Shown: positions 2,282 through 60,197 of the stretch, in pieces
How the letters are laid out: each line of letters begins with the position of its first letter
How positions within the stretch are numbered: the stretch's first letter is position 1
Assembly: GCA_964035575.1 (NCBI GenBank)
Contig: OZ037837.1
Coordinates: 1,116,001-1,180,000 of the forward strand
Direction: 5' to 3'
DNA: 64,000 bases
Source of the DNA: Rhynchopus sp. YZ270_cl-10
Taxonomy: Eukaryota
Notes under the pieces: model-generated
Database searches by the model: none
What the model was told of the DNA's origin: nothing
Seen by the model: only the letters and a program-made list of their open reading frames with translations
Translations under genes and position numbers: made by a program

Positions 2282-5200
2282 AAACGCGCCGTTTCTCAGA
2301 AAACAGACGCTTTTGTTCGAAACGCGCCGTTTCTCAGAAAACCGACGCTTTTGTTCGAAACGCGCCGTTTCTCAGAAAACCGACGCTTTTGTTCGAAACG
2401 CGCCGTTTCTCAGAAAACGGACGCTTTTGATCGAAACGCGCCGTTTCTCAGAAAACCGACGCTTTTGTTCGAAACGCGACGTTTCTCAGAAAACCGACGC
2501 TTTTGTTCGAAACGCGACGTTTCTCAGAAAACCGACGCTTTTGTTCGAAACGCGCCGTTTCTCAGAAAACGGACGCTTTTGTTCGAAACGCGCCGTTTCT
2601 CAGAAAACCGACGCTTTTGATCGAAACGCGCCGTTTCTCAGAAAACGGACGCTTTTGATCGAAACGCGCCGTTTCTCAGAAAACCGACGCTTTTGATCGA
2701 AACGCGCCGTTTCTCCGAAAACGGACGCTTTTGTTCGAAACGCGCCGTTTCTCAGAAAACCGACGCTTTTGTTCGAAACGCGCCGTTTCTCAGAAAACCG
2801 ACGCTTTTGTTCGAAACGCGCCGTTTCTCAGAAAACCGACGCTTTTGTACGAAACGCGACGTTTCTCAGAAAACCGACGCTTTTGTTCGAAACGCGCCGT
2901 TTCTCAGAAAACCGACGCTTTTGTTCGAAACGCGACGTTTCTCAGAAAACGGACGCTTTTGATCGAAACGCGCCGTTTCTCAGAAAACGGACGCTTTTGA
3001 TCGAAACGCGCCGTTTCTCAGAAAACGGACGCTTTTGTTCGAAACGCGCCGTTTCTCAGAAAACGGACGCTTTTGTTCGGAACGCGCCGTTTCTCAGAAA
3101 ACCGACGCTTTTGTTCGAAACGCGCCGTTTGTCAGAAAACCGACGCTTTTGATCGAAACGCGCCGTTTTTCAGAAAACCGACGCTTTTGTTCGAAACGCG
3201 CCGTTTCTCAGAAAACGGACGCTTTTGTTCGAAACGCGCCGTTTTTCAGAAAACCGACGCTTTTGTTCGAAACGCGCCGTTTCTCAGAAAACGGACGCTT
3301 TTGTTCGAAACGCGCCGTTTGTCAGAAAACCGACGCTTTTGATCGAAACGCGCCGTTTTTCAGAAAACCGACGCTTTTGTTCGAAACGCGCCGTTTCTCA
3401 GAAAACGGACGCTTTTGTTCGGAACGCGCCGTTTCTCAGAAAACGGACGCTTTTGTTCGGAACGCGCCGTTTCTCAGAAAACCGACGCTTTTGTTCGAAA
3501 CGCGCCGTTTGTCAGAAAACCGACGCTTTTGTTCGAAACGCGACGTTTCTCAGAAAACCGACGCTTTTGTTCGAAACGCGCCGTTTCTCAGAAAACCGAC
3601 GCTTTTGTTCGAAACGCGACGTTTCTCAGAAAACCGACGCTTTTGTTCGAAACGCGCCGTTTCTCAGAAAACCGACGCTTTTGTTCGAAACGCGACGTTT
3701 CTCAGAAAACCGACGCTTTTGTTCGAAACGCGACGTTTCTCAGAAAACCGACGCTTTTGTTCGAAACGCGCCGTTTCTCAGAAAACCGACGCTTTTGATC
3801 GGAAAGCGCCGTTTCTCAGAAAACGGACGCTTTTGATCGAAACGCGCCGTTTCTCAGAAAACGGACGCTTTTGTTCGAAACGCGCCGTTTTTCAGAAAAC
3901 CGACGCTTTTGTTCGAAACGCGCCGTTTCTCAGAAAACCGACGCTTTTGATCGGAAAGCGCCGTTTTTCAGAAAACCGACGCTTTTGATCGAAAAGCGCC
4001 GTTTTTCAGAAAACCGACGCTTTTGATCGAAACGCGCCGTTTTTCAGAAAACCGACGCTTTTGTTCGAAACGCGCCGTTTCTCAGAAAACCGACGCTTTT
4101 GATCGAAACGCGCCGTTTTTCAGAAAACCGACGCTTTTGATCGAAACGCGCCGTTTTTCAGAAAACCGACGCTTTTGATCGGAAAGCGCCGTTTCTCAGA
4201 AAACCGACGCTTTTGTTCGGAACGCGCCGTTTCTCAGAAAACGGACGCTTTTGTTCGAAACGCGCCGTTTGTCAGAAAACCGACGCTTTTGTTCGAAACG
4301 CGCCGTTTCTCAGAAAACGGACGCTTTTGATCGAAACGCGCCGTTTCTCAGAAAACGGACGCTTTTGATCGAAACGCGCCGTTTCTCAGAAAACGGACGC
4401 TTTTGTTCGGAACGCGCCGTTTCTCAGAAAACCGACGCTTTTGTTCGAAACGCGCCGTTTGTCAGAAAACCGACGCTTTTGATCGAAACGCGCCGTTTTT
4501 CAGAAAACCGACGCTTTTGATCGGAAAGCGCCGTTTCTCAGAAAACCGACGCTTTTGTTCGAAACGCGCCGTTTCTCAGAAAACGGACGCTTTTGTTCCA
4601 ACCGCGCCGTTTGTCAGAACACCGACGCTTTTGATCGAAACGCGCCGTTTTTTCAGAAAACCGACGCTTTTGATCGGAAAGCGCCGTTTCTCAGAAAACC
4701 GACGCTTTTGTTCGAAACGCGCCGTTTCTCAGAAAACGGACGCTTTTGTTCCAACCGCGCCGTTTGTCAGAACACCGACGCTTTTGATCGAAACGCGCCG
4801 TTTCTCAGAAAACCGACGCTTTTGTTCGGAACGCGCCGTTTCTCAGAAAACGGACGCTTTTGTTCGGAACGCGCCGTTTCTCAGAAAACCGACGCTTTTG
4901 TTCGGAACGCGCCGTTTCTCAGAAAACGGACGCTTTTGTTCGAAACGCGCCGTTTTTCAGAAAACCGACGCTTTTGTTCGAAACGCGCCGTTTGTCAGAA
5001 AACCGACGCTTTTGTTCGAAACGCGCCGTTTCTCAGAAAACGGACGCTTTTGTTCGAAACGCGCCGTTTCTCAGAAAACCGACGCTTTTGTTCGAAACGC
5101 GCCGTTTCTCAGAAAACGGACGCTTTTGTTCGAAACGCGCCGTTTGTCAGAAAACCGACGCTTTTGATCGAAACGCGCCGTTTTTCAGAAAACCGACGCT

Positions 5201-8012
5201 TTTGTTCGAAACGCGCCGTTTCTCAGAAAACCGACGCTTTTGTTCGGAACGCGCCGTTTCTCAGAAAACCGACGCTTTTGATCGAAACGCGCCGTTTTTC
5301 AGAAAACCGACGCTTTTGTTCGGAACGCGCCGTTTCTCAGAAAACGGACGCTTTTGTTCGAAACGCGCCGTTTGTCAGAAAACCGACGCTTTTGATCGAA
5401 ACGCGCCGTTTCTCAGAAAACGGACGCTTTTGATCGAAACGCGCCGTTTCTCAGAAAACGGACGCTTTTGATCGAAACGCGCCGTTTCTCAGAAAACGGA
5501 CGCTTTTGTTCGAAACGCGCCGTTTGTCAGAAAACCGACGCTTTTGATCGAAACGCGCCGTTTCTCAGAAAACGGACGCTTTTGATCGAAACGCGCCGTT
5601 TCTCAGAAAACGGACGCTTTTGTTCGAAACGCGCCGTTTCTCAGAAAACGGACGCTTTTGTTCGGAACGCGCCGTTTCTCAGAAAACCGACGCTTTTGTT
5701 CGAAACGCGCCGTTTTTCAGAAAACCGACGCTTTTGATCGGAAAGCGCCGTTTCTCAGAAAACCGACGCTTTTGTTCGAAACGCGCCGTTTCTCAGAAAA
5801 CGGACGCTTTTGTTCGAAACGCGCCGTTTTTTCAGAAAACCGACGCTTTTGTTCGAAACGCGCCGTTTCTCAGAAAACCGACGCTTTTGATCGGAAAGCG
5901 CCGTTTCTCAGAAAACCGACGCTTTTGTTCGAAACGCGCCGTTTCTTCAGAAAACCGACGCTTTTGATCGAAACGCGCCGTTTCTCAGAAAACGGACGCT
6001 TTTGTTCGAAACGCGCCGTTTCTCAGAAAACCGACGCTTTTGATCGGAAAGCGCCGTTTTTCAGAAAACCGACGCTTTTGATCGGAAAGCGCCGTTTCTC
6101 AGAAAACCGACGCTTTTGTTCGGAACGCGCCGTTTCTCAGAAAACGGACGCTTTTGATCGAAACGCGCCGTTTCTCAGAAAACGGACGCTTTTGATCGAA
6201 ACGCGCCGTTTCTCAGAAAACGGACGCTTTTGTTCGAAACGCGCCGTTTGTCAGAAAACGGACGCTTTTGATCGAAACGCGCCGTTTCTCAGAAAACGGA
6301 CGCTTTTGATCGAAACGCGCCGTTTCTCAGAAAACGGACGCTTTTGATCGAAACGCGCCGTTTCTCAGAAAACGGACGCTTTTGATCGAAACGCGCCGTT
6401 TCTCAGAAAACGGGCGCTTTTGTTCGAAACGCGCCGTTTTTCAGAAAACGGACGCTTTTGTTCGAAACGCGCCGTTTCTCAGAAAACCGACGCTTTTGAT
6501 CGGAAAGCGCCGTTTCTCAGAAAACCGACGCTTTTGTTCGAAACGCGCCGTTTTTTCAGAAAACCGACGCTTTTGATCGAAACGCGCCGTTTCTCAGAAA
6601 ACGGACGCTTTTGTTCGAAACGCGCCGTTTCTCAGAAAACCGACGCTTTTGATCGGAAAGCGCCGTTTTTCAGAAAACCGACGCTTTTGATCGGAAAGCG
6701 CCGTTTCTCAGAAAACCGACGCTTTTGTTCGGAACGCGCCGTTTCTGAGAAAACAGACGCTTTTGTTCGAAACGCGCCGTTTGTCAGAAAACCGACGCTT
6801 TTGTTCGAAACGCGCCGTTTCTCAGAAAACGGACGCTTTTGATCGAAACGCGCCGTTTCTCAGAAAACGGACGCTTTTGATCGAAACGCGCCGTTTCTCA
6901 GAAAACGGACGCTTTTGATCGAAACGCGCCGTTTCTCAGAAAACGGACGCTTTTGATCGAAACGCGCCGTTTCTCAGAAAACGGGCGCTTTTGTTCGAAA
7001 CGCGCCGTTTTTCAGAAAACGGACGCTTTTGTTCGAAACGCGCCGTTTCTCAGAAAACGGACGCTTTTGTTCGAAACGCGCCGTTTCTCAGAAAACGGAC
7101 GCTTTTGTTCGAAACGCGCCGTTTCTCAGAAAACCGACGCTTTTGTTCGAAACGCGCCGTTTGTCAGAAAACCGACGCTTTTGTTCGAAACGCGCCGTTT
7201 CTCAGAAAACCGACGCTTTTGTTCGAAACGCGCCGTTTTTCAGAAAACCGACGCTTTTGATCGAAACGCGCCGTTTCTCAGAAAACCGACGCTTTTGATC
7301 GGAACGCGCCGTTTCTCAGAAAACGGACGCTTTTGTTCGGAACGCGCCGTTTCTCAGAAAACGGACGCTTTTGTTCGAAACGCGCCGTTTCTCAGAAAAC
7401 CGACGCTTTTGATCGAAACGCCCCGTTTCTCAGAAAACGGACGCTTTTGATCGAAACGCGCCGTTTCTCAGAAAACGGACGCTTTTGATCGAAACGCGCC
7501 GTTTCTCAGAAAACCGACGCTTTTGATCGGAACGCGCCGTTTCTCAGAAAACGGACGCTTTTGTTCGGAACGCGCCGTTTCTCAGAAAACGGACGCTTTT
7601 GTTCGAAACGCGCCGTTTCTTAGAAAACCGACGCTTTTGTTCGAAACGCGCCGTTTCTCAGAAAACGGACGCTTTTGTTCGGAACGCGCCGTTTCTCAGA
7701 AAACGGACGCTTTTGTTCGGAACGCGCCGTTTCTTAGAAAACCGACGCTTTTGTTCGAAACGCGCCGTTTCTCAGAAAACCGACGCTTTTGTTCGAAACG
7801 CGCCGTTTCTCAGAAAACCGACGCTTTTGTTCGAAACGCGCCGTTTCTCAGAAAACGGACGCTTTTGTTCGAAACGCGCCGTTTCTCAGAAAACCGACGC
7901 TTTTGATCGAAACGCCCCGTTTCTCAGAAAACGGACGCTTTTGTTCGGAACGCGCCGTTTCTCAGAAAACGGACGCTTTTGTTCGAAACGCGCCGTTTGT
8001 CAGAAAACCGAC
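2282..8012. repeat. 38-bp tandem satellite, about 150 units, truncated by the gap
   Basis: Consensus AAACGCGCCGTTTCTCAGAAAACCGACGCTTTTGTTCG with a few recurrent variants (CCGAC/CGGAC, TGTTCG/TGATCG, TTTCT/TTTGT/TTTTT). Confidence 0.98.
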
Positions 8013-8212
8013 NNNNNNNNNNNNNNNNNNNNNNNNNNNNNNNNNNNNNNNNNNNNNNNNNNNNNNNNNNNNNNNNNNNNNNNNNNNNNNNNNNNNNNNN
8101 NNNNNNNNNNNNNNNNNNNNNNNNNNNNNNNNNNNNNNNNNNNNNNNNNNNNNNNNNNNNNNNNNNNNNNNNNNNNNNNNNNNNNNNNNNNNNNNNNNNN
8201 NNNNNNNNNNNN
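8013..8212. other. Assembly gap (200 N)
   Basis: Run of N. Confidence 1.
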
Positions 8213-12121: not shown

Positions 12122-12260
12122 AGAGCCACACTTCACCGACAGGTAGAGGTGTGTGCGTTTCACCACAGGGTACGAAGTGATCAGCAAAGCTGAGGTGGCC
12201 AAGATAGTGATCTTGTTATTGGGTGTGTGCGTTTCACCACAACCTCTCCCTGTCTTTATT
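12122..12260 (+). repeat. Dispersed SINE-like short repeat; other copies ~22350-22446(-), ~30199-30260(+), ~56549-56625(+), ~57638-57717(-)
   Basis: Shared core GAGCCACACTTCACCGACAGGTAGAGGTGTGTGCGTTTCACCACAACCTCTCCC followed by a TTTATTG-rich tail. Confidence 0.75.
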
Positions 12261-12522
12261 GTCTTTATTGTCTTTATTGTCTTTATTGTCTTTATTGTCT
12301 TTATTGTCTTTATTGTCTTTATTGTCTTTATTGTCTTTATTGTCTTTATTGTCTTTATTGTCTTTATTGTCTTTATTGTCTTTATTGTCTTTATTGTCTT
12401 TATTGTCTTTATTGTCTTTATTGTCTTTATTGTCTTTATTGTCTTTATTGTCTTTATTGTCTTTATTGTCTTTATTGTCTTTATTGTCTTTATTGTCTTT
12501 ATTGTCTTTATTGTCTTTATTG
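12251..12522. repeat. (GTCTTTATT)n 9-mer array, about 30 units
   Basis: Direct reading. Confidence 0.98.
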
Positions 12523-12539
12523 GGGTGATCTGGGGTCTT

Positions 12540-12710
12540 TTTTTTCAAGATTATTCACAAGCCATTCACAAAAATTCACAAAAATTCACAAATATTCACG
12601 AAAACCTACACACCCGCGTATCACGTGTGTTTCCGCCTCGTTGTGAATTTTTGTGAATTTATGTGAATTTTTGTAATTTTTTGTGTTTTTTTGTGATTTT
12701 TTTTTTGGTT
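12540..12710. repeat. Inverted arrays of ATTCACAAAA / TTTGTGAAT motifs (fold-back or MITE-like)
   Basis: ATTCACAAAA-like copies at ~12553-12603 mirrored by TTGTGAATTT-like copies at ~12641-12700. Confidence 0.6.
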
Positions 12711-12846
12711 TTTGGTGTGGTGCATAACCGATTACCCGTGTTTCTACCAGTTTAAACGACGGCATTTGCATTTCCGGAATCCGCCCGGCCAGTGGTGGGG
12801 TCAATTTGCCGAAATGGACAAGTTCTCGTTTTTGGTCAATTTCCGC

Positions 12847-13097
12847 ATACACAGTATACACAGTATACACAGTATACACAGTATACACAGTATACACAGT
12901 ATACACAGTATACACAGTATACACAGTATACACAGTATACACAGTATACACAGTATACACAGTATACACAGTATACACAGTATACACAGTATACACAGTA
13001 TACACAGTATACACAGTATACACAGTATACACAGTATACACAGTATACACAGTATACACAGTATACACAGTATACACAGTATACACAGTATACACAG
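12847..13097. repeat. (ATACACAGT)n 9-mer array, about 28 units
   Basis: Direct reading. Confidence 0.98.
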
Positions 13098-13106
13098 GGG
13101 ATTGGG

Positions 13107-14944
13107 AGTACAGTACAGTACAGTACAGTACAGTACAGTACAGTACAGTACAGTACAGTACAGTACAGTACAGTACAGTACAGTACAGTACAGTACAGTA
13201 CAGTACAGTACAGTACAGTACAGTACAGTACAGTACAGTACAGTACAGTACAGTACAGTACAGTACAGTACAGTACAGTACAGTACAGTACAGTACAGTA
13301 CAGTACAGTACAGTACAGTACAGTACAGTACAGTACAGTACAGTACAGTACAGTACAGTACAGTACAGTACAGTACAGTACAGTACAGTACAGTACAGTA
13401 CAGTACAGTACAGTACAGTACAGTACAGTACAGTACAGTACAGTACAGTACAGTACAGTACAGTACAGTACAGTACAGTACAGTACAGTACAGTACAGTA
13501 CAGTACAGTACAGTACAGTACAGTACAGTACAGTACAGTACAGTACAGTACAGTACAGTACAGTACAGTACAGTACAGTACAGTACAGTACAGTACAGTA
13601 CAGTACAGTACAGTACAGTACAGTACAGTACAGTACAGTACAGTACAGTACAGTACAGTACAGTACAGTACAGTACAGTACAGTACAGTACAGTACAGTA
13701 CAGTACAGTACAGTACAGTACAGTACAGTACAGTACAGTACAGTACAGTACAGTACAGTACAGTACAGTACAGTACAGTACAGTACAGTACAGTACAGTA
13801 CAGTACAGTACAGTACAGTACAGTACAGTACAGTACAGTACAGTACAGTACAGTACAGTACAGTACAGTACAGTACAGTACAGTACAGTACAGTACAGTA
13901 CAGTACAGTACAGTACAGTACAGTACAGTACAGTACAGTACAGTACAGTACAGTACAGTACAGTACAGTACAGTACAGTACAGTACAGTACAGTACAGTA
14001 CAGTACAGTACAGTACAGTACAGTACAGTACAGTACAGTACAGTACAGTACAGTACAGTACAGTACAGTACAGTACAGTACAGTACAGTACAGTACAGTA
14101 CAGTACAGTACAGTACAGTACAGTACAGTACAGTACAGTACAGTACAGTACAGTACAGTACAGTACAGTACAGTACAGTACAGTACAGTACAGTACAGTA
14201 CAGTACAGTACAGTACAGTACAGTACAGTACAGTACAGTACAGTACAGTACAGTACAGTACAGTACAGTACAGTACAGTACAGTACAGTACAGTACAGTA
14301 CAGTACAGTACAGTACAGTACAGTACAGTACAGTACAGTACAGTACAGTACAGTACAGTACAGTACAGTACAGTACAGTACAGTACAGTACAGTACAGTA
14401 CAGTACAGTACAGTACAGTACAGTACAGTACAGTACAGTACAGTACAGTACAGTACAGTACAGTACAGTACAGTACAGTACAGTACAGTACAGTACAGTA
14501 CAGTACAGTACAGTACAGTACAGTACAGTACAGTACAGTACAGTACAGTACAGTACAGTACAGTACAGTACAGTACAGTACAGTACAGTACAGTACAGTA
14601 CAGTACAGTACAGTACAGTACAGTACAGTACAGTACAGTACAGTACAGTACAGTACAGTACAGTACAGTACAGTACAGTACAGTACAGTACAGTACAGTA
14701 CAGTACAGTACAGTACAGTACAGTACAGTACAGTACAGTACAGTACAGTACAGTACAGTACAGTACAGTACAGTACAGTACAGTACAGTACAGTACAGTA
14801 CAGTACAGTACAGTACAGTACAGTACAGTACAGTACAGTACAGTACAGTACAGTACAGTACAGTACAGTACAGTACAGTACAGTACAGTACAGTACAGTA
14901 CAGTACAGTACAGTACAGTACAGTACAGTACAGTACAGTACAGT
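13107..14944. repeat. (CAGTA)n pentanucleotide array, about 367 units, no visible variants
   Basis: Direct reading. Confidence 0.98.
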
Positions 14945-15017
14945 CTTTATTGTCTTTATTGTCTTTATTGTCTTTATTGTCTTTATTGTCTTTATTGTCT
15001 TTATTGTCTTTATTGTC
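14943..15017. repeat. (GTCTTTATT)n 9-mer array, about 8 units
   Basis: Direct reading. Confidence 0.95.
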
Positions 15018-15329
15018 GTCATTGGGTTGTTTAACGGAATTTGAGGGAGAGATGATACAGTTTTGTTGACTTGAATTGGAGAAGGGGATGTGTCCAATGA
15101 AAATCACGTCGGTAGAAAAGTTCGAGAATGTAGGTTTTATTATGTTTCAAAAAATCGTTGATGATCAACAGAACTTTGTTAGGTGACGGCCCCCCTGGGT
15201 CAGACCAAGGGGTTAACCATGCCTTGACGCACTCACGGGATGAAGTGTGCCGTCTGTATGTCGACATGTGCACCAGTATGTTGTCATTGTGGTGATGCTG
15301 GGGTGGAAGAGGGACGTGCCCAGCCATGG

Positions 15330-17974: not shown

Positions 17975-19172
17975 GAAGCAAGTAAGCGTTCACTTTGCAG
18001 CAGTTGTTGTTGTGCATCTCCACCCCTCGCACTGTGTGGTCAGCTGCACGACGGCTGCTCTGCACTGTGCTGAGGTGTGCTTCTTTATTATTTTTGGGAG
18101 GTGGTGACAGAGTGAGGTGGGGTTTGTTGGGATGAGTCATACGAAACAATTGGGAGGATTTGAGAGGGTTGGCTGGGTGTTGTGAACAACAGAGCATTTC
18201 TTTGGGGTTTGGGTGAGGGAAGGTGAGGGTGGGGTCCTTCTTAGGATCAGAAGTGTGTCCATTAAAATTGGGTTTTCATTTTTGAGTTTTGGATGTTTGG
18301 AACACTGCTGTGGGTTTCAAGCAGGTGTTTTATATCTCTACGGATTCGTGGAGAGCAATGGGTGGGGGGAGTGCACAACAAGGTGGCAAATGCAGACAAG
18401 ATGGCAATGGTGCACCGCCTTTTTGATTGAGATGAGCATTGTGTCGATAACTGCTTTTGCGCACATTCACTTTATGCAAGCCAAGTTCTTCGCAACCATG
18501 TGGAAGGGTGTGAAGAGGGTGTGCAAGGCTTAAAGACATCGCAAAGCAACAAAGCACTTCGCATGGTCGAGTGGTACATTGTCTGCTTCCCGTCCGTCGT
18601 TGTGGTGATGCTGGGGTGGAACAGGGACGTGCCCAGCCATGGGGTGCTTTCGTGCATTTGTCTGGCACCTCGGCTTGCCGTGGTTGCAGCACGAGAGCAC
18701 CTTTGGCGTTCTTGCTGGGGTGGGTGGGGTGGGGTGCGCTGGTGTGGGGTGCCTATCTTGGGTGGTGTTTTTACTCAGTGTGTGGGTTCACTTTCGCGAC
18801 ATGGCACTGTGCCGTCTGTGCCCTCAGGCAGGTGGCAGCTGGTGGGTGTTCTTCTCCCAGGTCGTCTAAGCAGTCACCTACCATCGTGCGTCTGCGTGAT
18901 GCGTGCAACTATGAGCAGCTTTGTGGGTGGGCCAAAGCATGTGTGTGGTCGGGAGGGGACGTCGTGCTCAGGGCTGGTTGGGGACACTCTTGCTTCTGGT
19001 GGGGATGGGGACACTCGCGTGCTGTGAGTGGTGACGGTGGAAGCGCTCTGCTTGCTTGTGTGCCTGTCTGCCATACTTCGTGACGTATGCGGCATGTATG
19101 TGTACGCTAAACATTGGCTGAGACGGTTTCGTGCGGTGTCGTTGCACGGCTCTGCCTGCCAAGGGTTTCTAA

Positions 19173-19713
19173 AGGGGGTAGACCTATTATTCACCCTTAC
19201 AATTCTCAGAATTCTCAAAAAAAGTTAAAATTTTGGAGATTTTATGGGCTCAAAAACACCTACTATCCTAGCAGTATCCTGCTACTATCCAGGTCGCTGT
19301 ACCGCCCTGTACAGCTATCCTGGATGGATACACGCCCGCCCACCTCTTCCCAGACATAATTACCTAGAAACTCGCCAACGGCGAGGACTACGTCAACAAC
19401 ACCACAGATACATGGTGCAAGGAATGTTTTTTTGGAAACAGGAGACTTGTACGAGCCAAAAGTCGTGTGTGGATATTCGCACCTGAGTTGCAGTTCGCAG
19501 AAGACGGGGCATCCACCCACCCATTTCTTTACTGTGGATATAAATTTTAATTTTTTTTGGTGGAAGCGTGCAATGCAACAAACGGTGGAGATCTGATCAA
19601 GCGAAACGGATATATTTCGGCCTCGTCAAAGTTAAAATTTTAAAATTTTATCGACAAAGCGTAGACCAGTATCCTAGGAGAATAGCTCTACCGGATAGTA
19701 GGTCCACCCCCCT
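19173..19713. mobile_element. MITE with ~20-bp imperfect TIRs and TAA flanks (PIF/Harbinger-like)
   Basis: AGGGGGTAGACCTATTATTC ... GGATAGTAGGTCCACCCCCCT; TAA at 19170-19172 and 19714-19716; empty site TTTCTACGTC in paralogous leaders near 31278, 37527, 61422. Confidence 0.8.
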
Positions 19714-19775
19714 TAACGTCGTTGCCCCAACACCACAACCCCACCACACAACAGAGCAACACAAAAGAAGACAAA

Positions 19776-21628
19776 ATGGAACTGACCATCAAGGACTGCT
19801 CCAACAACTTGTACGTGATCGAGGTGGGTGTGGATGACACAACGGAGACGATGCGGCAGAAGGTGGCGACTGCAGCAGGGTTGGCTGAGGACAGCTTCCA
19901 CATGGGCTTCGGAGGGAAGCAGGAAGGAGAGGACATCACGCAGCTGAGTGCTGGAGACACAGTCGTGCTGACGAAGACGAAGAAGGTGTGGCGTACCGTC
20001 TGCAACGCAGCTCCGAAGGCATGTCTGAGGCGGAGCTCCGTGGTGGCGATAGAGCGAGAGGTACATGGATGGGGGAGTATTCTGCTGAGACGGCGTACCC
20101 CTCCACAGAAGTTAGGGGCAGGAGGGCACTACCATTCATCCAGCGGGCTGAACAGGAGACATCTGCGCATGCTCGCTACCGGCACCATGAGCACGTGCGT
20201 CCAGGGGACGCACCCGTGAAGGCACCTGAAGGAGCGGTTCCGATCTTCCAGTTTGCGATATGTGTGCTGCACCGGAAGACGAAGTGTGATGCCTGCTCGA
20301 AGAACGCCCAGGCAGACCTGATGCATTGCTGCTTTGCGCACCACTCCAACGACGACGGGTTACCGATCCGACACGAAGCATGCACTAAGCATAGACTCTC
20401 GAGGTGCGGGAACTGTGTGCAAGAGAAGAGTACGCTGGATCACTGCTGCCGCCGCCACCACGACACCTCGAAGGGGCGACAGACGACGCTGGGAGGCTTC
20501 TTCAAGAAGAAGCAGACGAAGCAGAAGGATGGGCACAGCAGGGGCGGTGATGGACTTATGTAACATCACCTCCACGATGTATTGTATCACCTATCTCGGA
20601 TAGGGGTGCATGCATCGAAAACGGGCCCCCACCAGCTGACGAAGACGAAGAAGTACGAAGCCCTTGCAGAGCTTCATGCGTTGGGTGAGACCGATATCAC
20701 TGCAGAGAGGCTGGAGACTGTGGAGGATCCTGTGGTGGCGTGTTTGCTTCTGCAGGCAGAGGTTGCGACTGTCATTCCGGATGGCTTCTTGGCAGAGGCA
20801 TCGTTAACAACACTTGATCTGAGTGCTGTTTCGTGTGTGACGGAAATAGGTGACTATTTCCTTGCTGGGTGCACAATGTTGACAAGTATCAACCTCTCTG
20901 GGTTGTGCAATGTGACGCGGATCGGTGAGAACTTTCTTCAAGGCTGCAAGAGCCTCACAGCATTAGACTTGACACCACTCAGCAGGATTGCACACATAGG
21001 TGATCGCTTTCTTTCCCACTGCAGGAGCCTCACAGAACTAAAGTTGTCAGCACTCCGCAGAATTACGCAAATAGGCGACAACTTTCTTGAGGAGTGCAGC
21101 GGCCTCACAGAACTAGACTTGCCACCACTCAGCAATGTTACACAAATTTACGAATACTTTCTTGCCGGCTGCCGGGGCCTGACAGCATTAAACTTGTCAC
21201 CACTATGCAATGTTACACGCATAGGCGGTTGCTTTCTTCTCGGCTGCAGGAGCCTCTCAGAACTAGACTTGACACCACTCACCAATGTTGCGCAAATAGA
21301 CCGAAGATTTCTTGCCTTCTGCACCAGCCTCACAGAACTAGACTTATCACCACTCAGCAGGATTGCACACATAGGCGAATATTTTCTTTCCCGCTGCACC
21401 AGCCTCACAGTGCTTGACTTGTCCCCACTTGGCGCAGTCATGGACATGGGTCCACTACCTGCTCACGAGTACACTTCGTTGAAGAGCATCCACCTCTCCG
21501 GCTGCAGCAGCGCTGTGTCGAGTCGAGTACAGGAAAGCAACCTGAAGGAGCTTGTTGATGCACGTCCGAAACGTAGCAGAGACGAATCTCCCGAGCAGTG
21601 CCGCAAGCGACGGAGAGGCTCAGAATGA
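19776..21628 (+). CDS. UBL-LRR-NLS protein copy A (9 LRR units), interrupted by a 650-bp insertion or intron at 19986-20635
   Basis: First 70 codons match the family UBL; the LRR part resumes after duplicated LTKTKK codons; 394 aa if precisely spliced. Confidence 0.8.
19986..20635 (+). mobile_element. 650-bp insertion with GT...CAG ends and 18-19 bp target-site duplication
   Basis: (G)CTGACGAAGACGAAGAAG at 19967-19985 and 20635-20653; absent from five paralogs. Confidence 0.9.
20021..20563 (+). CDS. Insert-encoded Cys/His-repeat protein with C-terminal PIP-box motif (possibly 5' truncated)
   Basis: Two C-x2-H-x4-C-x2-C-x8/9-HCC-x2-HH units and QTTLGGFF followed by a Lys-rich tail; frame open from the insert's 5' end. 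Confidence 0.6.
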   Translation: MSEAELRGGDRARGTWMGEYSAETAYPSTEVRGRRALPFIQRAEQETSAHARYRHHEHVRPGDAPVKAPEGAVPIFQFAICVLHRKTKCDACSKNAQADLMHCCFAHHSNDDGLPIRHEACTKHRLSRCGNCVQEKSTLDHCCRRHHDTSKGRQTTLGGFFKKKQTKQKDGHSRGGDGLM

Positions 21629-23073: not shown

Positions 23074-25227
23074 ATGGAACTGACCATCAAGGACTGCTCC
23101 AACAACTTGTACGTGATCGAGGTGGGTGTGGATGACACAACGGAGACGATGCGGCAGAAGGTGGCGACTGCAGCAGGGTTGGCTGAGGACAGCTTCCACA
23201 TGGGCTTCGGAGGGAAGCAGGAAGGAGAGGACATCACGCAGCTGAGTGCTGGAGACACAGTCGTGCTGACGAAGACGAAGAAGTACAAAGCCATTGCAGA
23301 GCTTCATAAGTTGGGTGAGACCGATATCACTGCAGAGAGGCTGGAGACTGTGGAGGATCCTGTGGTGGCGTGTTTGCTTCTGCAGGCGGAGGTTGCGACT
23401 GTCATTCCGAATCGCTTCTTAGCAGACACATCGTTAACAACACTTGATCTCAGTGCTGTTTCGTGTGTGACGGAAATTCGTGACAATTTCCTTGCTGGGT
23501 GCGCAACGTTGACAAGTATCAACCTCTCTGGGTTGTGCAATGTGACGCGGATTGGTGAAGGCTTTCTTTCCAGTACAGGCCTCACAGCATTAGACTTGAC
23601 ACCACTCAGCAGGATTACGCAAATAGATGGTTCGTTTCTTGTCGGCTGCAGCGGCCTCACAGAACTAGACTTGTCGCCACTCAGCAGGATTGCACACATA
23701 GGTGATGGCTTTCTTGCCCGCTGCACGGGCCTCACAGAACTAGACTTGACACCACTCAGCAGGATTGCGCAAATCGACGAAAGCTTTCTTGAAGGCTGCA
23801 GCGGCCTCACAGCATTAGACTTGACACCACTCAGCAGGATTACGCAAATAGATGGTTCGTTTCTTGTCGGCTGCAGCGGCCTCACAGAACTAGATTTGTT
23901 GTCACTCAGCAGGATTGCACACATAGGTGATGGCTTTCTTGCCCGCTGCACGGGCCTCACAGAACTAGACTTGACACCACTCAGCAGGATTGCGCAAATC
24001 GACGAAAGCTTTCTTGAAGGCTGCAGCGGCCTCACAGCATTAGACTTATCACCATTCAGTAGGATTGCACACATAGGCGGTTGGTTTCTTCTCGGCTGCA
24101 GCAGTCTCACAGAACTAGACTTGACACCACTCAGCAGGATTGCGCAAATAGGCGAAAGCTTTCTTTCCGGCACAGGCCTCACAGAGATAGACTTGGCACC
24201 ACTCAGCAGGATTGTAAAAATAGATGGTTGCTTTCTTCTCGGCTGCAGGAGCCTCACAAAATTAAACTTGACACCACTCAGCAGGGTTGCGCAAATAGGC
24301 GAAAGGTTTCTTGAGGAGTGCAGCAGCCTCACAGAACTAGACTTGACACCACTCAGCAATGTCACAGACATAGGCGATTGCTTTCTTAACGACTGCAAGA
24401 GCCTCACAGTGCTGAACTTGGCACCACTCAGCAAGGTTACGATAGTTGGTAGTTTCTTTCTCTACGGCTGCAGCGGCCTCACAGAACTAGACTTGACATC
24501 GCTCGCCAATCTTACACAACTACGTGAATACTTTCTTGCCACCTGCACAGGCCTCACAGCATTAGATTTGTCGCCACTCACCAGGATTACACAACTTGGC
24601 GAGAACTTTCTTCAAGGCTGCAAGAGCCTCACAGTATTAGACTTGTCGCCACTCAGCAGGATTGCACACATAGGCGAAAGCTTTCTTGCCAACTGCTGGG
24701 GCCTCAGAGAACTAAACTTGTCGTCACTCAGCAATCTTTCAGACATTAGTGGTTGGTTTCTTGAGGACTGCAGGAGCCTCACAGAACTAAACTTGACACC
24801 ACTCAGCAATGTTACAGACATAGCTGACTGTTTTCTTGACGGCTGCACCAGCCTCACAGAACTAGACTTATCGCCACTCGAAAATATTGTGCAAATAGGA
24901 GAGTGCTTTCTCGACAACTGCAGCGGCCTCACAGAACTAGACTTGACGCCGCTGTGCATGGTTTATAAAATCGGTGATGGCTTTCTCGCCAACTGCACCA
25001 GCCTCACAGTGCTTGACTTATCCCCACTCGGCATAGTCATGCACATGGGTGAGCTACATGCTGACGAGTACACTTCGTTGAAGAGCATCCACCTCTCCGG
25101 CTGCAGCAGCGCTGTGTCGAGTCGAGTACAGGAAAGCAACCTGAAGGAGCTTGTTGATGCACGTCCGAAACGTAGCAGAGACGAATCTCCCGAGCAGTGC
25201 CGCAAGCGACGGAGAGGCTCAGAATGA
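23074..25227 (+). CDS. UBL-LRR-NLS protein copy B (22 LRR units, 717 aa)
   Basis: Intact ORF; UBL-like N-terminus, 25-aa repeats LTELDLxPLSxxxxIGxxFLxxCxx, C-terminal KRSR...RKRRR. Confidence 0.93.
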   Translation: MELTIKDCSNNLYVIEVGVDDTTETMRQKVATAAGLAEDSFHMGFGGKQEGEDITQLSAGDTVVLTKTKKYKAIAELHKLGETDITAERLETVEDPVVACLLLQAEVATVIPNRFLADTSLTTLDLSAVSCVTEIRDNFLAGCATLTSINLSGLCNVTRIGEGFLSSTGLTALDLTPLSRITQIDGSFLVGCSGLTELDLSPLSRIAHIGDGFLARCTGLTELDLTPLSRIAQIDESFLEGCSGLTALDLTPLSRITQIDGSFLVGCSGLTELDLLSLSRIAHIGDGFLARCTGLTELDLTPLSRIAQIDESFLEGCSGLTALDLSPFSRIAHIGGWFLLGCSSLTELDLTPLSRIAQIGESFLSGTGLTEIDLAPLSRIVKIDGCFLLGCRSLTKLNLTPLSRVAQIGERFLEECSSLTELDLTPLSNVTDIGDCFLNDCKSLTVLNLAPLSKVTIVGSFFLYGCSGLTELDLTSLANLTQLREYFLATCTGLTALDLSPLTRITQLGENFLQGCKSLTVLDLSPLSRIAHIGESFLANCWGLRELNLSSLSNLSDISGWFLEDCRSLTELNLTPLSNVTDIADCFLDGCTSLTELDLSPLENIVQIGECFLDNCSGLTELDLTPLCMVYKIGDGFLANCTSLTVLDLSPLGIVMHMGELHADEYTSLKSIHLSGCSSAVSSRVQESNLKELVDARPKRSRDESPEQCRKRRRGSE

Positions 25228-26549
25228 TAGAAGGCCGGTGCGTTTGCAACCGGCAAGAGCACAGTCAGCCGCATCTGCATCGATGCGTCAGAGGCAACCC
25301 GCAGTACCATGGTCCGAAGCTTCTGTGAACTGTTGTTACGTTTTTGCTCTCGTTTGTCGGTCTTGCCACGAGAAGGGGTAATAGGGTAATAGGGGAATAG
25401 GGTCGGGGTGGGTACGACATTGGGGGATTCACGCATTCTTTGTTTCGATTTCTTTTCCTGAAGAAGGGTTTTAGTTGGGGAGGGGAGGTGGGGTGTTTGG
25501 GTAAGTAATGTGTGAAGAACAGCGAAGCCAAACATTCTTGTAAGAGGAGTGTACGTCTTGTGTTCACATCTAAAAGCAAAACTGTGAGGGAGACATACAA
25601 GTGTATCGTGTGGAAGAGAGGTAGGGAGTGGGGGTGTTCTGTTAAAAGGTGCCGTGTTACGACCTGGCAACTTCCAGCAGTAGGTTAAGTAATCTTTCTT
25701 GTAAATTGTTGGATCATTATCTCCTCAGTGCATGAATGCCCCACGTGACTGGACACTTTTGTGTTTGTCATGTGGAGCTGTGGTTGCTCTTTCACGACTT
25801 TTTTCCTGTTCCTGGGTACCTGGACCTGGACCTGGGTATCTGGGTATCGGTACCTGGGTACCTGGGTACCAAGAAGGCAAAAAATCAAGAATCCGGATTA
25901 TGCGACAATGTGGATTATTAATCCACATTGTCGTAATCCACATTTTTAGAGTCCACATTGTCGTTTCCCCTTTTTTTTTTATATAGTAAACTGCTTATCA
26001 ACTTAAACCCGCAAACCCAGACCAGAATATTGAACGAGGATAGTGGTGTGGGAAGTATCCAAGTGGTTACTACACCTTTTGGGTCTGAACTGTCCTTTTT
26101 GCAAACGTTTTGGGTCTCTTAAATCTGGGGTGGAACAGGGATATGGTGCTTTTCGTGCATATGGGTGCACCATGTTCTTTGCTAAGAGAACGAAACAAAA
26201 TGAAATAGAAGCAACGCAAAGGGGACTGTTCAACAAGTATACTCCACGAACGTTTTCCCCTCCATCCCTCATATTTTGATACTAACTCGCCGTGTGCGCT
26301 GTGCTCCACACAGCACAACGTAACGTCCACGAAACACGGTGCTGGCATTTGTGCGGGAAGGGGAGGCACAAAGAACGCTGTCACTTCTGTGGTGATGAAT
26401 GGTGCAGAAGCTTGGCAACGATTACCAGCCTCTCACTCACCTTTCCTGTGTGCTGCAGTCTTGAACGCACACTCTGTTTCCATCCCATGCCACCCACCCA
26501 ACCCCTTCCAGACACCCCTGCACCCTCCCACCTCTTCGAAACACACAAC

Positions 26550-30082: not shown

Positions 30083-31341
30083 CTCCAACCACGACCCTTC
30101 AGATGACCAAGCACGAGGCTTGCGTATTCATGTTTATTTAGGCGTATGTACAAGAGACATATCGCCAGTGTTCTTTATTTTGTATTTTATTTGTTTGGAG
30201 AGGTGTGTGCGTTTCACCACAACCTCCCTTTTGTCTTCATTGTTGTATTGTTTGCGGGGTGATGGGTAAACATAATAAAAGGGAAAGTAGGGTTTCAATT
30301 ATATTTGTTTTTGCTTCTCGGTGCCTACCGTACACAGAGACACTTTGCACTAATGTAAGCGGTTAAAAGTCAGTTTTCTTTTATGGTTGGCCGAAGATCT
30401 TAGTGACGAACACGAAAAATCACAGTTAAAAAAAAAAAAAAACTTTGTTCCGTTTTTGGAGCGAAGTGATTGTCGACACAACAAAAAAAAACGATTGTAG
30501 CGAAAACAACAGAGCGAGGATGATCCCAGGTCGGCTGGGAAAAGAATCATTTCGTACTATGATCGTTGGTGAACCATGTTCTCTGCCAACAAAATAAAAT
30601 AAAACGAAAGATGGAAGCAACGCAAAGGGTACTGCACAACAAGTATACTTCACAAACGTTTTCCCCTCCATCCCTCATATTTTGATACTAACTCGCCGTG
30701 TGCGCTGTGCTCCACCCATACCCACACAGCACAACGTAACGTCCACGAAACACGGTGCTGGCATTTGCACGGGATGGTGGTGGTGGCTTGGCTGCGCTTG
30801 GGCGTTCTTTTGGGTTTGGGGCACGGTGCACTGGGTGGGCTGGTGGGCGGGATCGCAGGAGGGAGACGTCGTTGTCGGAGGACACAGGTGCAGGGCACGT
30901 TGTGTGGTAGTGCAGCACGACTGGTTCTGGCTCGATGTGCAGTGTGTTGTCGTTGTGGTGATGCTGGGGTGGAACAGGGACGTGCCCAGCCGTGGGGTGC
31001 TTTCGTGCATTTGTCTGGCACCTCGGCTTGCCGTGGTTGCAGCACGAGAGCACCTTTGGCGTTCTTGCTGGGGTGGGTGGGGTGGGGTGCCTATCTTGGG
31101 TGGTGTTTTTATTCAGTGTGTGGGTTCACTTTCGCGACATGGCACTGTGCCGTCTGTGCCCCTCAGGCAGGTGGCAGCTGGTGGGTGTTCTTCTCCCAGG
31201 TCGTCTAAGCAGTCACCTACCATCGTGCGTCTTGCGGCTTCGTGCGGTGTCGTTGCACGGCTCTGCCTGCCAAGGGGTTTCTACGTCGTTGCCCCAACCC
31301 CACAACCCCACCACACAACAGAGCAACACAAAAGAAGACAA

Positions 31342-51476: not shown

Positions 51477-52291
51477 AGCACGTCCAAAACGAAGCAGAGA
51501 CGAATCCCCCGAGGAAAGCCAGAAGCGACAGAGACACGCACAATGACAGCACCCATATCCCGACCACCCAGAAAACCCCGGGCAGTTCCGAGCCAATCCC
51601 ATGACTGACACGCTGGAGAGGCCCTGGCCAAGCATGGAGTGTTAGGGTAAATATATACGCTGCACAGATAGATCAGAGACCCCACCCGATATGTTTTCAC
51701 TTTACTCTTTTGTGTTCCGCCTCCTACACCCCCATTTTCTATACTTCAGGCAATAATCACAATCATCACACTCTGACACAATCCGCGTGTACTGGAAACA
51801 ATCAATTTGAAAAGTGGAAGCGTGCAACGCAACAACTGTCGAGATCTGATCAAGCGGAACGGATACATTCTTTTTGTACGAGTATGCAATACGTCTGTAA
51901 ATGAAAGATGTTCACGTGATGACGCGCTGGGAAGTGACCCGCCGCCTGGCCAACATCACCAAGGCAGAAGCTGCCTACGAAGGTATTGTGGTGCTGATGG
52001 GAGAGGGGAAGCCGGTGGCTGGCCGTGGGGTGCTTTCGTGCATTTGTCTGGCACCTCAGCTTGCCTGTGGTTGCAGCACGAGAGCACCTTTGGCGTTCTT
52101 CCTTGCGTGGGGTGGGTGGAGACAGCGGAGAGTGTCCTATGGGAGGCACTGCATCTTGCAGCAGGGCTGGGATGGCGGCACTCAGGTGCGTGATGGGGTT
52201 GGGTTTTGAAGGTGGGGGTTGGGGGGAATGGACAAACCTGTGCAATGTGGTGAAGGCTGCACAGCCCTGTACGCTATGGGCGCCTCCTATC

Positions 52292-58347: not shown

Positions 58348-60197
58348 ATGGAACTGACCATCAAGGACTGCTCCAACAACTTGTACGTGATCGAGGTGGG
58401 TGTGGATGACACAACGGAGACGATGCGGCAGAAGGTGGCGACTGCAGCAGGGTTGGCTGAGGACAGCTTCCACATGGGCTTCGGAGGGAAGCAGGAAGGA
58501 GAGGACATCACGCAGCTGAGTGCTGGAGACACAGTCGTGCTGACGAAGACGAAGAAGGTGTGGCGTACCGTCTGCAACGCAGCTCCGAAGGCATGTCTGA
58601 GGCGGAGCTCCGTGGTGGCGATAGAGCGAGAGGTACATGGATGGGGGAGTATTCTGCTGAGACGGCGTACCCCTCCACAGAAGTTAGGGGCAGGAGGGCA
58701 CTACCATTCATCCAGCGGGCTGAACAGGAGACATCTGCGCATGCTCGCTACCGGCACCATGAGCACGTGCGTCCAGGGGACGCACCCGTGAAGGCACCTG
58801 AAGGAGCGGTTCCGATCTTCCAGTTTGCGATATGTGTGCTGCACCGGAAGACGAAGTGTGATGCCTGCTCGAAGAACGCCCAGGCAGACCTGATGCATTG
58901 CTGCTTTGCGCACCACTCCAACGACGACGGGTTACCGATCCGACACGAAGCATGCACTAAGCATAGACTCTCGAGGTGCGGGAACTGTGTGCAAGAGAAG
59001 AGTACGCTGGATCACTGCTGCCGCCGCCACCACGACACCTCGAAGGGGCGACAGACGACGCTGGGAGGCTTCTTCAAGAAGAAGCAGACGAAGCAGAAGG
59101 ATGGGCACAGCAGGGGCGGTGATGGACTTATGTAACATCACCTCCACGATGTATTGTATCACCTATCTCGGATAGGGGTGCATGCATCGAAAACGGGCCC
59201 CCACCAGCTGACGAAGACGAAGAAGTACGAAGCCCTTGCAGAGCTTCATGCGTTGGGTGAGACCGATATCGCTGCAGAGAGGCTGGAGACTGTGGAGGAT
59301 CCTGTGGTGGCGTGTTTGCTTCTGCAGGCAGAGGTTGCGACTGTCATTCCGAATCGCTTCTTAGCAGACACATCGTTAACAACACTTGATCTCAGTGCTG
59401 TTTCGTGTGTGACGGAAATAGGTGACTATTTTCTTGGCGGGTGCACAACGTTGACAAGTATCAACCTCTCTGGGTTGTGCAATGTGACGCGGATTGGTGA
59501 CGACTTTCTTTTCTGCACAGGCCTCACAGCATTAGACTTGACACCACTCAGCAGGATTGCACACATAGGTGTTCGCTTTCTTGACGGCTGTGAGAGCCTC
59601 ACAGAACTAAAGTTGTCAGCACTCAGCAGGATTACGCAAATAGGCGAAAGGTTTCTTGAGGAGTGCAGCGGCCTCACAGAACTAGACTTGGCACCACTCA
59701 GCAATGTTACAGACGTAGGCGCATTCTTTCTGAACCACTGCAGCGGCCTCTCAGGGCTAGACTTGACATCACTCAGCAATGTTACAGACATTAATGGTTG
59801 GTTTCTCGACGGCTGCAGCAGCCTCACAGAGCTAGACTTGTCGCCACTCGAAACAGTTGCACACATAGGCGAATTCTTTCTTAACGACTGCAGCGGCCTC
59901 ACAGAACTAGACTTGTCGCCACTTTGTTATGTTTATCAAATTGATGCTTGCTTTCTTGCCAACTGCAGCGGCCTCACAGAACTAGACTTATCCCCACTCG
60001 GCGTAGTCATGCACATGGGTGTGCTACGTGCTGAGCAGTACACTTCGTTGAAGAGCATCCACCTCTCCGGCTGCAGCAGCGCTGTGTCGAGTCGAGTACA
60101 GGAAAGCAACCTGAAGGAGCTTGTTGATGCACGTCCGAAACGTAGCAGAGACGAATCTCCCGAGCAGTGCCGCAAGCGACGGAGAGGCTCAGAATGA
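58348..60197 (+). CDS. UBL-LRR-NLS protein copy G (9 LRR units), interrupted by the same 650-bp insertion or intron at 58558-59207
   Basis: Same structure as copy A; 393 aa if precisely spliced. Confidence 0.8.
58558..59207 (+). mobile_element. Second copy of the 650-bp GT...CAG insertion (internal ORF 58593-59135)
   Basis: Same TSD (58539-58557, 59207-59225); translations identical to the 19986 copy. Confidence 0.9.

Follow-up and report, generated by a model that had tools for sequence, protein, structure and literature searches.

The window considered here, i.e., the whole 64,000-nucleotide stretch of Rhynchopus sp. YZ270_cl-10 (contig OZ037837.1, positions 1,116,001 to 1,180,000), carries at 19776-21628 a ubiquitin-like/BspA-LRR gene that is split at its LTKTKK codons by a 649-bp insert (19986-20634), with the insert being bounded by a perfect 19-bp direct repeat. 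The features of this locus, together with a second copy of the insert, are as follows.

19776..19985, + strand: 5′ part of the host gene, ubiquitin-like domain ending LTKTKK (Pfam ubiquitin E 0.005, below the cut-off; also assigned from the paralogues)
19967..19985, + strand: target-site duplication, left copy, 19 bp, GCTGACGAAGACGAAGAAG
19986..20634, + strand: 5′-truncated non-LTR retrotransposon copy, 649 bp, beginning with GT and oriented as the host gene
19985..20563, + strand: open frame of the element, identical to residues 1473-1664 of protein P0016 plus the stop (exact suffix match)
20261..20344, + strand: Cys/His unit 1, CVLHRKTKCDAC-x9-HCCFAHH, pattern C-x2-H-x4-C-x2-C-x10-CC-x2-HH, predicted zinc-binding
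20381..20461, + strand: Cys/His unit 2, CTKHRLSRCGNC-x8-HCCRRHH, pattern C-x2-H-x4-C-x2-C-x9-CC-x2-HH, predicted zinc-binding
20480..20503, + strand: PIP box QTTLGGFF, followed by the basic run KKK, predicted PCNA-binding (consensus match, PMC5371812)
20564..20634, + strand: 3′ UTR, 71 nt, with a predicted hairpin, ending CCCCCACCA, without poly(A)
20635..20653, + strand: target-site duplication, right copy
20654..21628, + strand: 3′ part of the host gene, BspA-type leucine-rich repeats, frame intact (Pfam LRR_5 E 3e-24)
58558..59206, + strand: second, base-identical copy of the insert in the paralogous gene 58348-60197, with duplications at 58539 and 59207

Intact paralogues of the host gene lie at 23074, 31342, 33738 and 37591, and the target site is present in the window in seven paralogues, with five of the sites being empty and two being filled. 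The two filled host genes have identical ubiquitin parts, while their LRR parts differ at 121 positions in 640 bp. The identity of the inserts and of the ubiquitin parts, combined with the divergence of the LRRs, points to a single insertion, the filled 5′ half of which would later have been copied to the second paralogue. When the host frame is read unspliced, it meets a stop at codon 148, and the open frame of the element is in a different frame from the ubiquitin part.

The genes of this type form a cluster at 19776-62300 of the window, with members at 19776, 23074, 31342, 33738, 37591, 50451, 58348 and 61486, the last of which is apparently frameshifted; their LRRs are highly variable, their N- and C-termini are nearly identical, and Cys/His-rich genes ending in LRRs are interspersed among them at 26292, 47869 and 53737. 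Just upstream of the host gene, 19172-19712 is occupied by another insertion, roughly 541 bp long, which has terminal inverted repeats rich in G and is flanked by TAA at either end; it is missing from the paralogues at 31283 and 37532, and a 57-bp piece of it occurs at 51814-51869. From its family traits we take it to resemble a PIF/Harbinger (Tourist-type) MITE. It is also noted that long tandem arrays are present at 3000-8100 and 12230-15030 (a multi-kb degenerate repeat, and satellites with short units of roughly 9 and 5 bp), that these arrays yield spurious long ORFs, that a run of N lies near 8000-8200, and that an Rfam scan of 19000-21000 gave one sub-threshold chance match only.

The preliminary description of this DNA had reported, inside the insert, a nested cargo ORF with a tandem Cys/His motif and a consensus PIP box, and had suggested the C-terminus of a mobile-element protein as its possible source. 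The motifs are located exactly where they had been placed. The ORF, which starts with an ATG at 20021, ends at 20563 and has 180 aa, is not a nested cargo: it is a mere remnant of 5′ truncation, out of frame with the ubiquitin part of the host, its frame is already open from 19985, and the methionine encoded at 20021 is an internal residue of a long LINE protein and not a dedicated start. The suggested source, on the other hand, proved to be the right one, the ORF being the C-terminus of a LINE ORF protein and identical to P0016 residues 1473-1664. A search among longer proteins gave four matches in 406 candidates, with the top one, P0001, being a 1212-aa reverse transcriptase (RT) protein that is 98% identical over the whole query (E 6e-125). 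The clusters of the four matches have 34, 7, 1 and 1 members, and the family counts given below rest on the 24 members listed. Full-length homologues were found as well, namely P0016 with 1664 aa and, in a sister subfamily, P0023 and P0024 with 1666 aa each. A tyrosine-recombinase C-terminus, which had been considered for about 20021-20090, was dropped when the APE-RT parent protein was found.

The order of parts in P0016 is a 2A-like peptide ending at residue 88, an AP endonuclease (APE) at 106-314, the RT at 684-900 (YADD), a candidate CCHC finger at 1191, then a further block, the Cys/His units at 1565 and 1605, and the PIP box at 1638. The endonuclease is recognised above the cut-off by Pfam Exo_endo_phos (E 6.3e-10 in P0016 and 4.5e-11 in P0023 and P0024) and the RT by Pfam RVT_1 (E 2.4e-19 in P0016 and 1e-19 in P0023/P0024), and the best matches among PDB sequences are to LINE-1 ORF2p (E 1e-14 to 7e-14) and then to R2. 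The CCHC finger, C-x2-C-x9-H-x4-C after the RT, is seen by pattern; Pfam zf-RVT has no match to P0016 and matches relatives only below the cut-off. For RNase H, Pfam gives no match in P0016, P0023 and P0024 at E up to 5, with the same domain being detected by Pfam in relatives. The RLE-type elements (R2, CRE/SLACS) are ruled out by the presence of an APE at the N-terminus, with Pfam matching nothing after the RT in P0016, P0023 or P0024, where a restriction-like endonuclease would be expected. In the repeat analysis of the insert locus, no terminal repeats were detected. Taken together, we are in hardly any doubt that the ORF represents the last 192 residues of a long APE-type LINE protein, present in a 649-bp 5′-truncated copy that is flanked by a 19-bp duplication inside the ubiquitin-LRR gene.

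The junctions of the insert agree with this assignment. Contigs of the sequencing runs X2 and X7, which like X1 and X8 are not on record as RNA, match from 19985 and then run upstream as element sequence (loose ends). Since they keep matching the element upstream of this position, G19985 is both the last base of the left duplication and the next base of the element, i.e., a 1-nt microhomology. Other family members begin to match the element at residues 611, 1094 and about 843, and stubs of 45-90 bp of the element 3′ end are present in other flanks, with a 14-bp duplication being readable for one of them (loose ends of X1); these variable start points and stubs are the typical 5′-truncation ladder of target-primed reverse transcription. 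The 3′ ends of the element lie at 20630-20634 without poly(A); the present copy ends directly at the duplication, and those of the other copies, mostly at 20630-20633, run into varied flanks. The hairpin of the 3′ UTR has a folding energy of −24 kcal/mol (z −2.56; 3 of 200 shuffles are as stable) and is plausibly a recognition signal for the RT. From the biology of the class, it would be expected that the A-rich LTKTKK codons are where the endonuclease nicks the bottom strand, that reverse transcription is primed at the nick on the 3′ end of the element RNA, and that it stops after about 650 nt, the joining occurring via the 1-nt microhomology. The truncated piece would be incapable of moving by itself, and it is probably not translated as a protein. 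In contigs of X7 and X8, 155 nt are skipped at window 20426-20582, with the second Cys/His unit being joined to the 3′ UTR hairpin, possibly reflecting an internally deleted, non-autonomous derivative that has no PIP box. When P0016 and P0023 are compared, the first 56 and the last 14 residues are identical and the tail is only about 73% identical; the identical ends of the two subfamilies suggest that both ends have recombined or are constrained at the level of the RNA.

With the RT region as query, 7989 candidates were scored and 15 of them matched at E up to 1e-30; six of the 15 are named D. papillatum proteins, and one has a Rhum transcriptome label. Taken with the style of the genes in the window, these relatives make it likely that the host is diplonemid-like. 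The RT tree, which consists of 15 rows (homologues only, none dropped), has an open backbone that fits both a loss and a swap of the Cys/His module. Because some relatives (P0027, P0030 and P0034) end in RNase H and others in the Cys/His tandem, the C-terminus of these LINEs is, as read from their sequences, modular: it carries RNase H, the Cys/His tandem or nothing. Another related LINE protein, P0036, has an N-terminal OTU protease domain (E 4.7e-08). At the opposite end, residues 71-88 of P0023 and P0024 have 17/18 identity to the T2A of Thosea asigna virus (reference sequence from a table in PMC9980757). The predicted 2A-like peptides read GDVEENPGP in P0023 and P0024, and GDVEEHPGP in P0016 and P0006, where H replaces the conserved N; the D. 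papillatum protein P0056 carries a 2A-like GDVHPNPGP. Peptides of this kind ahead of the APE domain are known from single-ORF LINEs, including Ingi and L1Tc (PMC3708506).

We now consider the Cys/His tandem. The unit pattern C-x2-[HC]-x4-C-x2-C-x(4-13)-CC-x(2-3)-HH occurs twice in 11/15 and 9/9 listed proteins of the two sister subfamilies, i.e., in 20 of the 24 listed family proteins, and in two D. papillatum LINE clusters it is present in 10/15 and 8/15 of the members listed (18/30), all these counts referring to listed cluster members, many of which are fragments. In the sister subfamily all 16 Cys/His positions are the same at a tail identity of 73%, for which 0.73^16 = 0.0065. The author of the preliminary description had not recognised the family of the zinc motif, and indeed neither Pfam, nor the PDB sequences (no match at E up to 10), nor the ESM Atlas offers a name for the unit. 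The Atlas gave no usable match for the tail and, for residues 1150-1480, unnamed clusters at 0.90 and a zf-RVT lead at 0.88. The AlphaFold2 model of the tail on a 5-row alignment is unusable (pLDDT 46, pTM 0.17), and a metagenome scan with the 426-aa tail gave 586 pattern matches among which no relative was confirmed. A search with P0016 residues 1180-1664 returned the two sister clusters only; this search is insensitive, as it missed D. papillatum tails that were later reached through the RT. We interpret the two 8-ligand units as a putative nucleic-acid-binding zinc module. Zinc binding itself, predicted solely from the ligand spacing, seems probable, and the eight ligands in each unit suggest two zinc ions per unit. 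It counts against our explanation that the module is dispensable in the lineage, with the cluster of P0026, the closest named RT relative (53% identity), having no tandem (0/15); a further cluster is likewise without it (0/6 listed).

The PIP box is less secure. When the 192-aa tail was shuffled 100,000 times, the strict consensus Qxx[LIM]xx[FY][FY] turned up anywhere in 0.2% of the shuffles and in the last 40 aa in 0.04%. In the family, a PIP box by the relaxed pattern stands behind the Cys/His units in 20/20 tandem-bearing proteins of the two sister subfamilies and in 0/18 of the D. papillatum proteins with both units, so that its conservation extends over the two sister subfamilies only. 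Moreover, the sister subfamily reads QTTLGGLF, failing the strict two-aromatic consensus by the L at position 7. If the box is functional, it would in the active element recruit PCNA and thereby link the replication/repair machinery to the insertion step or to the repair of the insertion, for which precedents exist in the PIP boxes of pogo-type transposases and in the binding of PCNA by LINE-1 (PMC5371812). The human LINE-1 also illustrates that a consensus match can mislead, because its canonical PIP was proposed as the PCNA site, whereas structure prediction and pull-downs favour a different site in the wrist domain (PMC7617806). The match here may be incidental, the element having a basic disordered C-terminal tail, kept by nuclear localisation or by an RNA-level constraint, that fits the consensus by accident; to this we assign a considerable weight, somewhat short of even. 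The absence of the box from the D. papillatum relatives, the tails of which are long, basic and of low complexity, is in line with it, as are the conservation of 7/8 PIP positions between the subfamilies, which does not exceed the 73% background (p = 0.32) with the following residues being equally conserved, and the chance of 1.6% per protein of this size, as obtained by shuffling the complete 1664-aa protein 20,000 times. It is harder to reconcile with an exact consensus that lies in the final 30 residues, directly behind a module that looks folded, and that has lysines after it, at a place where the chance in the last 40 aa is only 0.04%. On balance, we lean slightly towards a terminal PIP box that may indeed function in recruiting PCNA.

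As to where the element inserts, a long foreign N-terminus is present on 4 of the 24 listed family proteins. In three of these, P0002, P0004 and P0010, ubiquitin-like host domains end three residues after LTK, as at the window locus, and the element sequence sets in at its residues 1094, 611 and about 843 (the third value being read by eye), both subfamilies being represented. Together with the window locus, where the junction is at 1473, this makes it likely that four independent insertions occurred at one codon position and that the position is a hot spot, with the evidence consisting of protein-level junctions and in-frame fusions only, in a large host family and from records whose genome may differ from that of the window. 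The preference is not exclusive, as the fourth chimera, P0003, and some of the stubs lie in other flanks. The flanks of the sites of the P0003 type and of the stubs look A-rich, although several sites are mixed in the consensus lines from which this is read (agreement 0.55-0.68).

Two further readings of the locus concern its expression. In addition to being a LINE copy, the insertion might also act as a new, introner-like spliceosomal intron, with the host protein still being made, which we regard as unlikely. There is a donor AAG|GTGTG at 19986, and in-frame acceptors ending at 20635, 20644, 20650 and 20653 restore the full host frame (with +6, +3, +1 or 0 residues), the first one at 20635 being the C-rich CCCCCACCAG and the others being the three AAG acceptors in the duplication. 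That all four AG acceptors between 20635 and 20653 restore the frame, and that the three other nearby AGs tested (ending at 20603, 20660 and 20669) do not, speaks for splicing. Yet in-frame acceptors are to be expected from a target with AAG lysine codons, and a start of the truncated copy with GT is unremarkable, as GT is common (30 in 649 nt). The acceptor CCCCCACCAG fits the canonical-intron diplonemids, which have (G)/GTATG donors and C-rich acceptors ended by CAG (PMC12621601); the donor, however, departs from GTATG at +3, and the CAG acceptor requires the terminal A that is mostly missing from the other 3′ ends (20630-20633). The LRR frames are still open in both filled genes, the insertion was itself duplicated, and introners of non-LTR origin do exist, making up about 5% of the classified introners (PMC12130899). 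Against this, the many intact paralogues leave little pressure to rescue a filled copy, and a 668-nt skip in X7 is accounted for by the empty DNA paralogues.

The other reading, that the tail has been domesticated or is independently expressed, with the internal ATG at 20021 serving as the start of a small zinc/PIP protein, we consider highly improbable. It could appeal to an intact ORF of 180 aa, to an ATG near the 5′ end of the insert, to the presence of two copies in the window, and to the probable transcription of the region, which is expected because diplonemid genes are co-transcribed in clusters (PMC10161547). The sequence does not, however, differ at all from the tail of full-length elements that are young, and its intactness therefore reflects youth rather than selection; the ATG is an internal Met, and the truncation points differ between copies and do not preserve the 20021-20563 ORF. 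We retain the reading as a young truncated LINE copy.

On this reading the locus itself is ordinary, and the LINE family is of moderate interest. What sets the family apart is the undescribed tandem Cys/His module, which is predicted to bind zinc and has no Pfam or PDB match, and a terminal PIP box specific to the two sister subfamilies, along with a probable hot spot and a possible intron-like rescue. If the PIP box works, it would provide a second LINE route to PCNA, separate from the wrist site of human LINE-1, and mutating it would be a straightforward way to ask what LINEs need the clamp for. If the hot spot is borne out by DNA sequences, the one known from trypanosome RHS genes would have an equivalent in another protein-coding family, and if the insert is spliced, intron gain from a LINE would have been caught soon after it took place, while empty paralogues still neighbour the filled ones. 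In its boldest form, which is speculative and in our judgement quite unlikely as a whole, the proposal would be that an undescribed diplonemid LINE lineage uses a C-terminal PIP box, placed after a new tandem zinc module, to dock on PCNA, and that it homes on the lysines between the ubiquitin and LRR parts of a large host gene family, where the AAG codons and the C-rich 3′ end of the element pre-build in-frame 3′ splice sites, so that copies truncated at a GT would be removable introns and LINE truncation would lead to intron gain at a safe-harbour hot spot.

It is useful to compare the element with known systems. The nearest are the uncurated D. papillatum LINE proteins KAJ9444445.1 (P0026), KAJ9454695.1 (P0031) and KAJ9439789.1 (P0032), which have the same APE-RT-CCHC order and share the block after the CCHC finger with its ELxxDFE motif. 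The RT identity of the element is 53% to P0026 and 42-43% to P0031/P0032; the clusters of P0031 and P0032 have the same tandem Cys/His unit whereas that of P0026 is without it, and none of these proteins has the C-terminal PIP box. The name 'R2 Pol polyprotein' given to them is automatic, the proteins carrying an AP endonuclease. The genome paper of D. papillatum counts about 2500 retroelement gene models and defers their rigorous classification (PMC10161547); in its seven text supplements, a term search returned orthogroup labels only, among the first two places per term. Our literature search, with most subscription journals and Repbase outside its scope, retrieved no description of this LINE family or of a C-terminal PIP box in a LINE.

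With the human LINE-1 ORF2p, the element shares the APE-RT-CCHC layout, in so far as its CCHC finger is assigned by pattern, and the 5′ truncation with target-site duplication. A Cys/His tandem is not known from LINE-1. LINE-1 and Ingi have a poly(A) tail, unlike the element here. LINE-1 binds PCNA, its canonical PIP being at residues 407-415 and the supported PCNA site in the wrist domain (PMC7617806), whereas the PIP of the present element, a predicted site only, lies at the extreme C-terminus, about 430 residues past the CCHC finger and behind the Cys/His tandem. The consensus PIP Qxx[ILM]xxF[FY] on a mobile-element enzyme is also found in the pogo, Tigger and Lemi1 transposases (PMC5371812), those being DNA transposons and the one here being a retrotransposon. 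As with the non-LTR-derived introners (PMC12130899), there is here an insertion into an exon with potential GT/AG ends and a restorable frame, known in the present case from DNA alone; by contrast with introners, the donor here comes from a chance truncation point and not from a fixed end of the element.

Finally, we compare the element with Ingi/L1Tc, in which one long ORF likewise encodes a 2A-like peptide immediately ahead of the APE (PMC3708506). Membership in the Ingi/L1Tc clade was considered and rejected: the 2A-like peptide before the APE is present, but Ingi has RNase H, Pr77 and poly(A) (PMC12278014), while the element here has no RNase H detectable by Pfam and no poly(A). The two systems are alike in the choice of target, as Ingi/RIME have also inserted repeatedly at one site in a multicopy protein-coding family (PMC7563717), with the target family being RHS for Ingi/RIME and the ubiquitin-LRR genes for the element described here.
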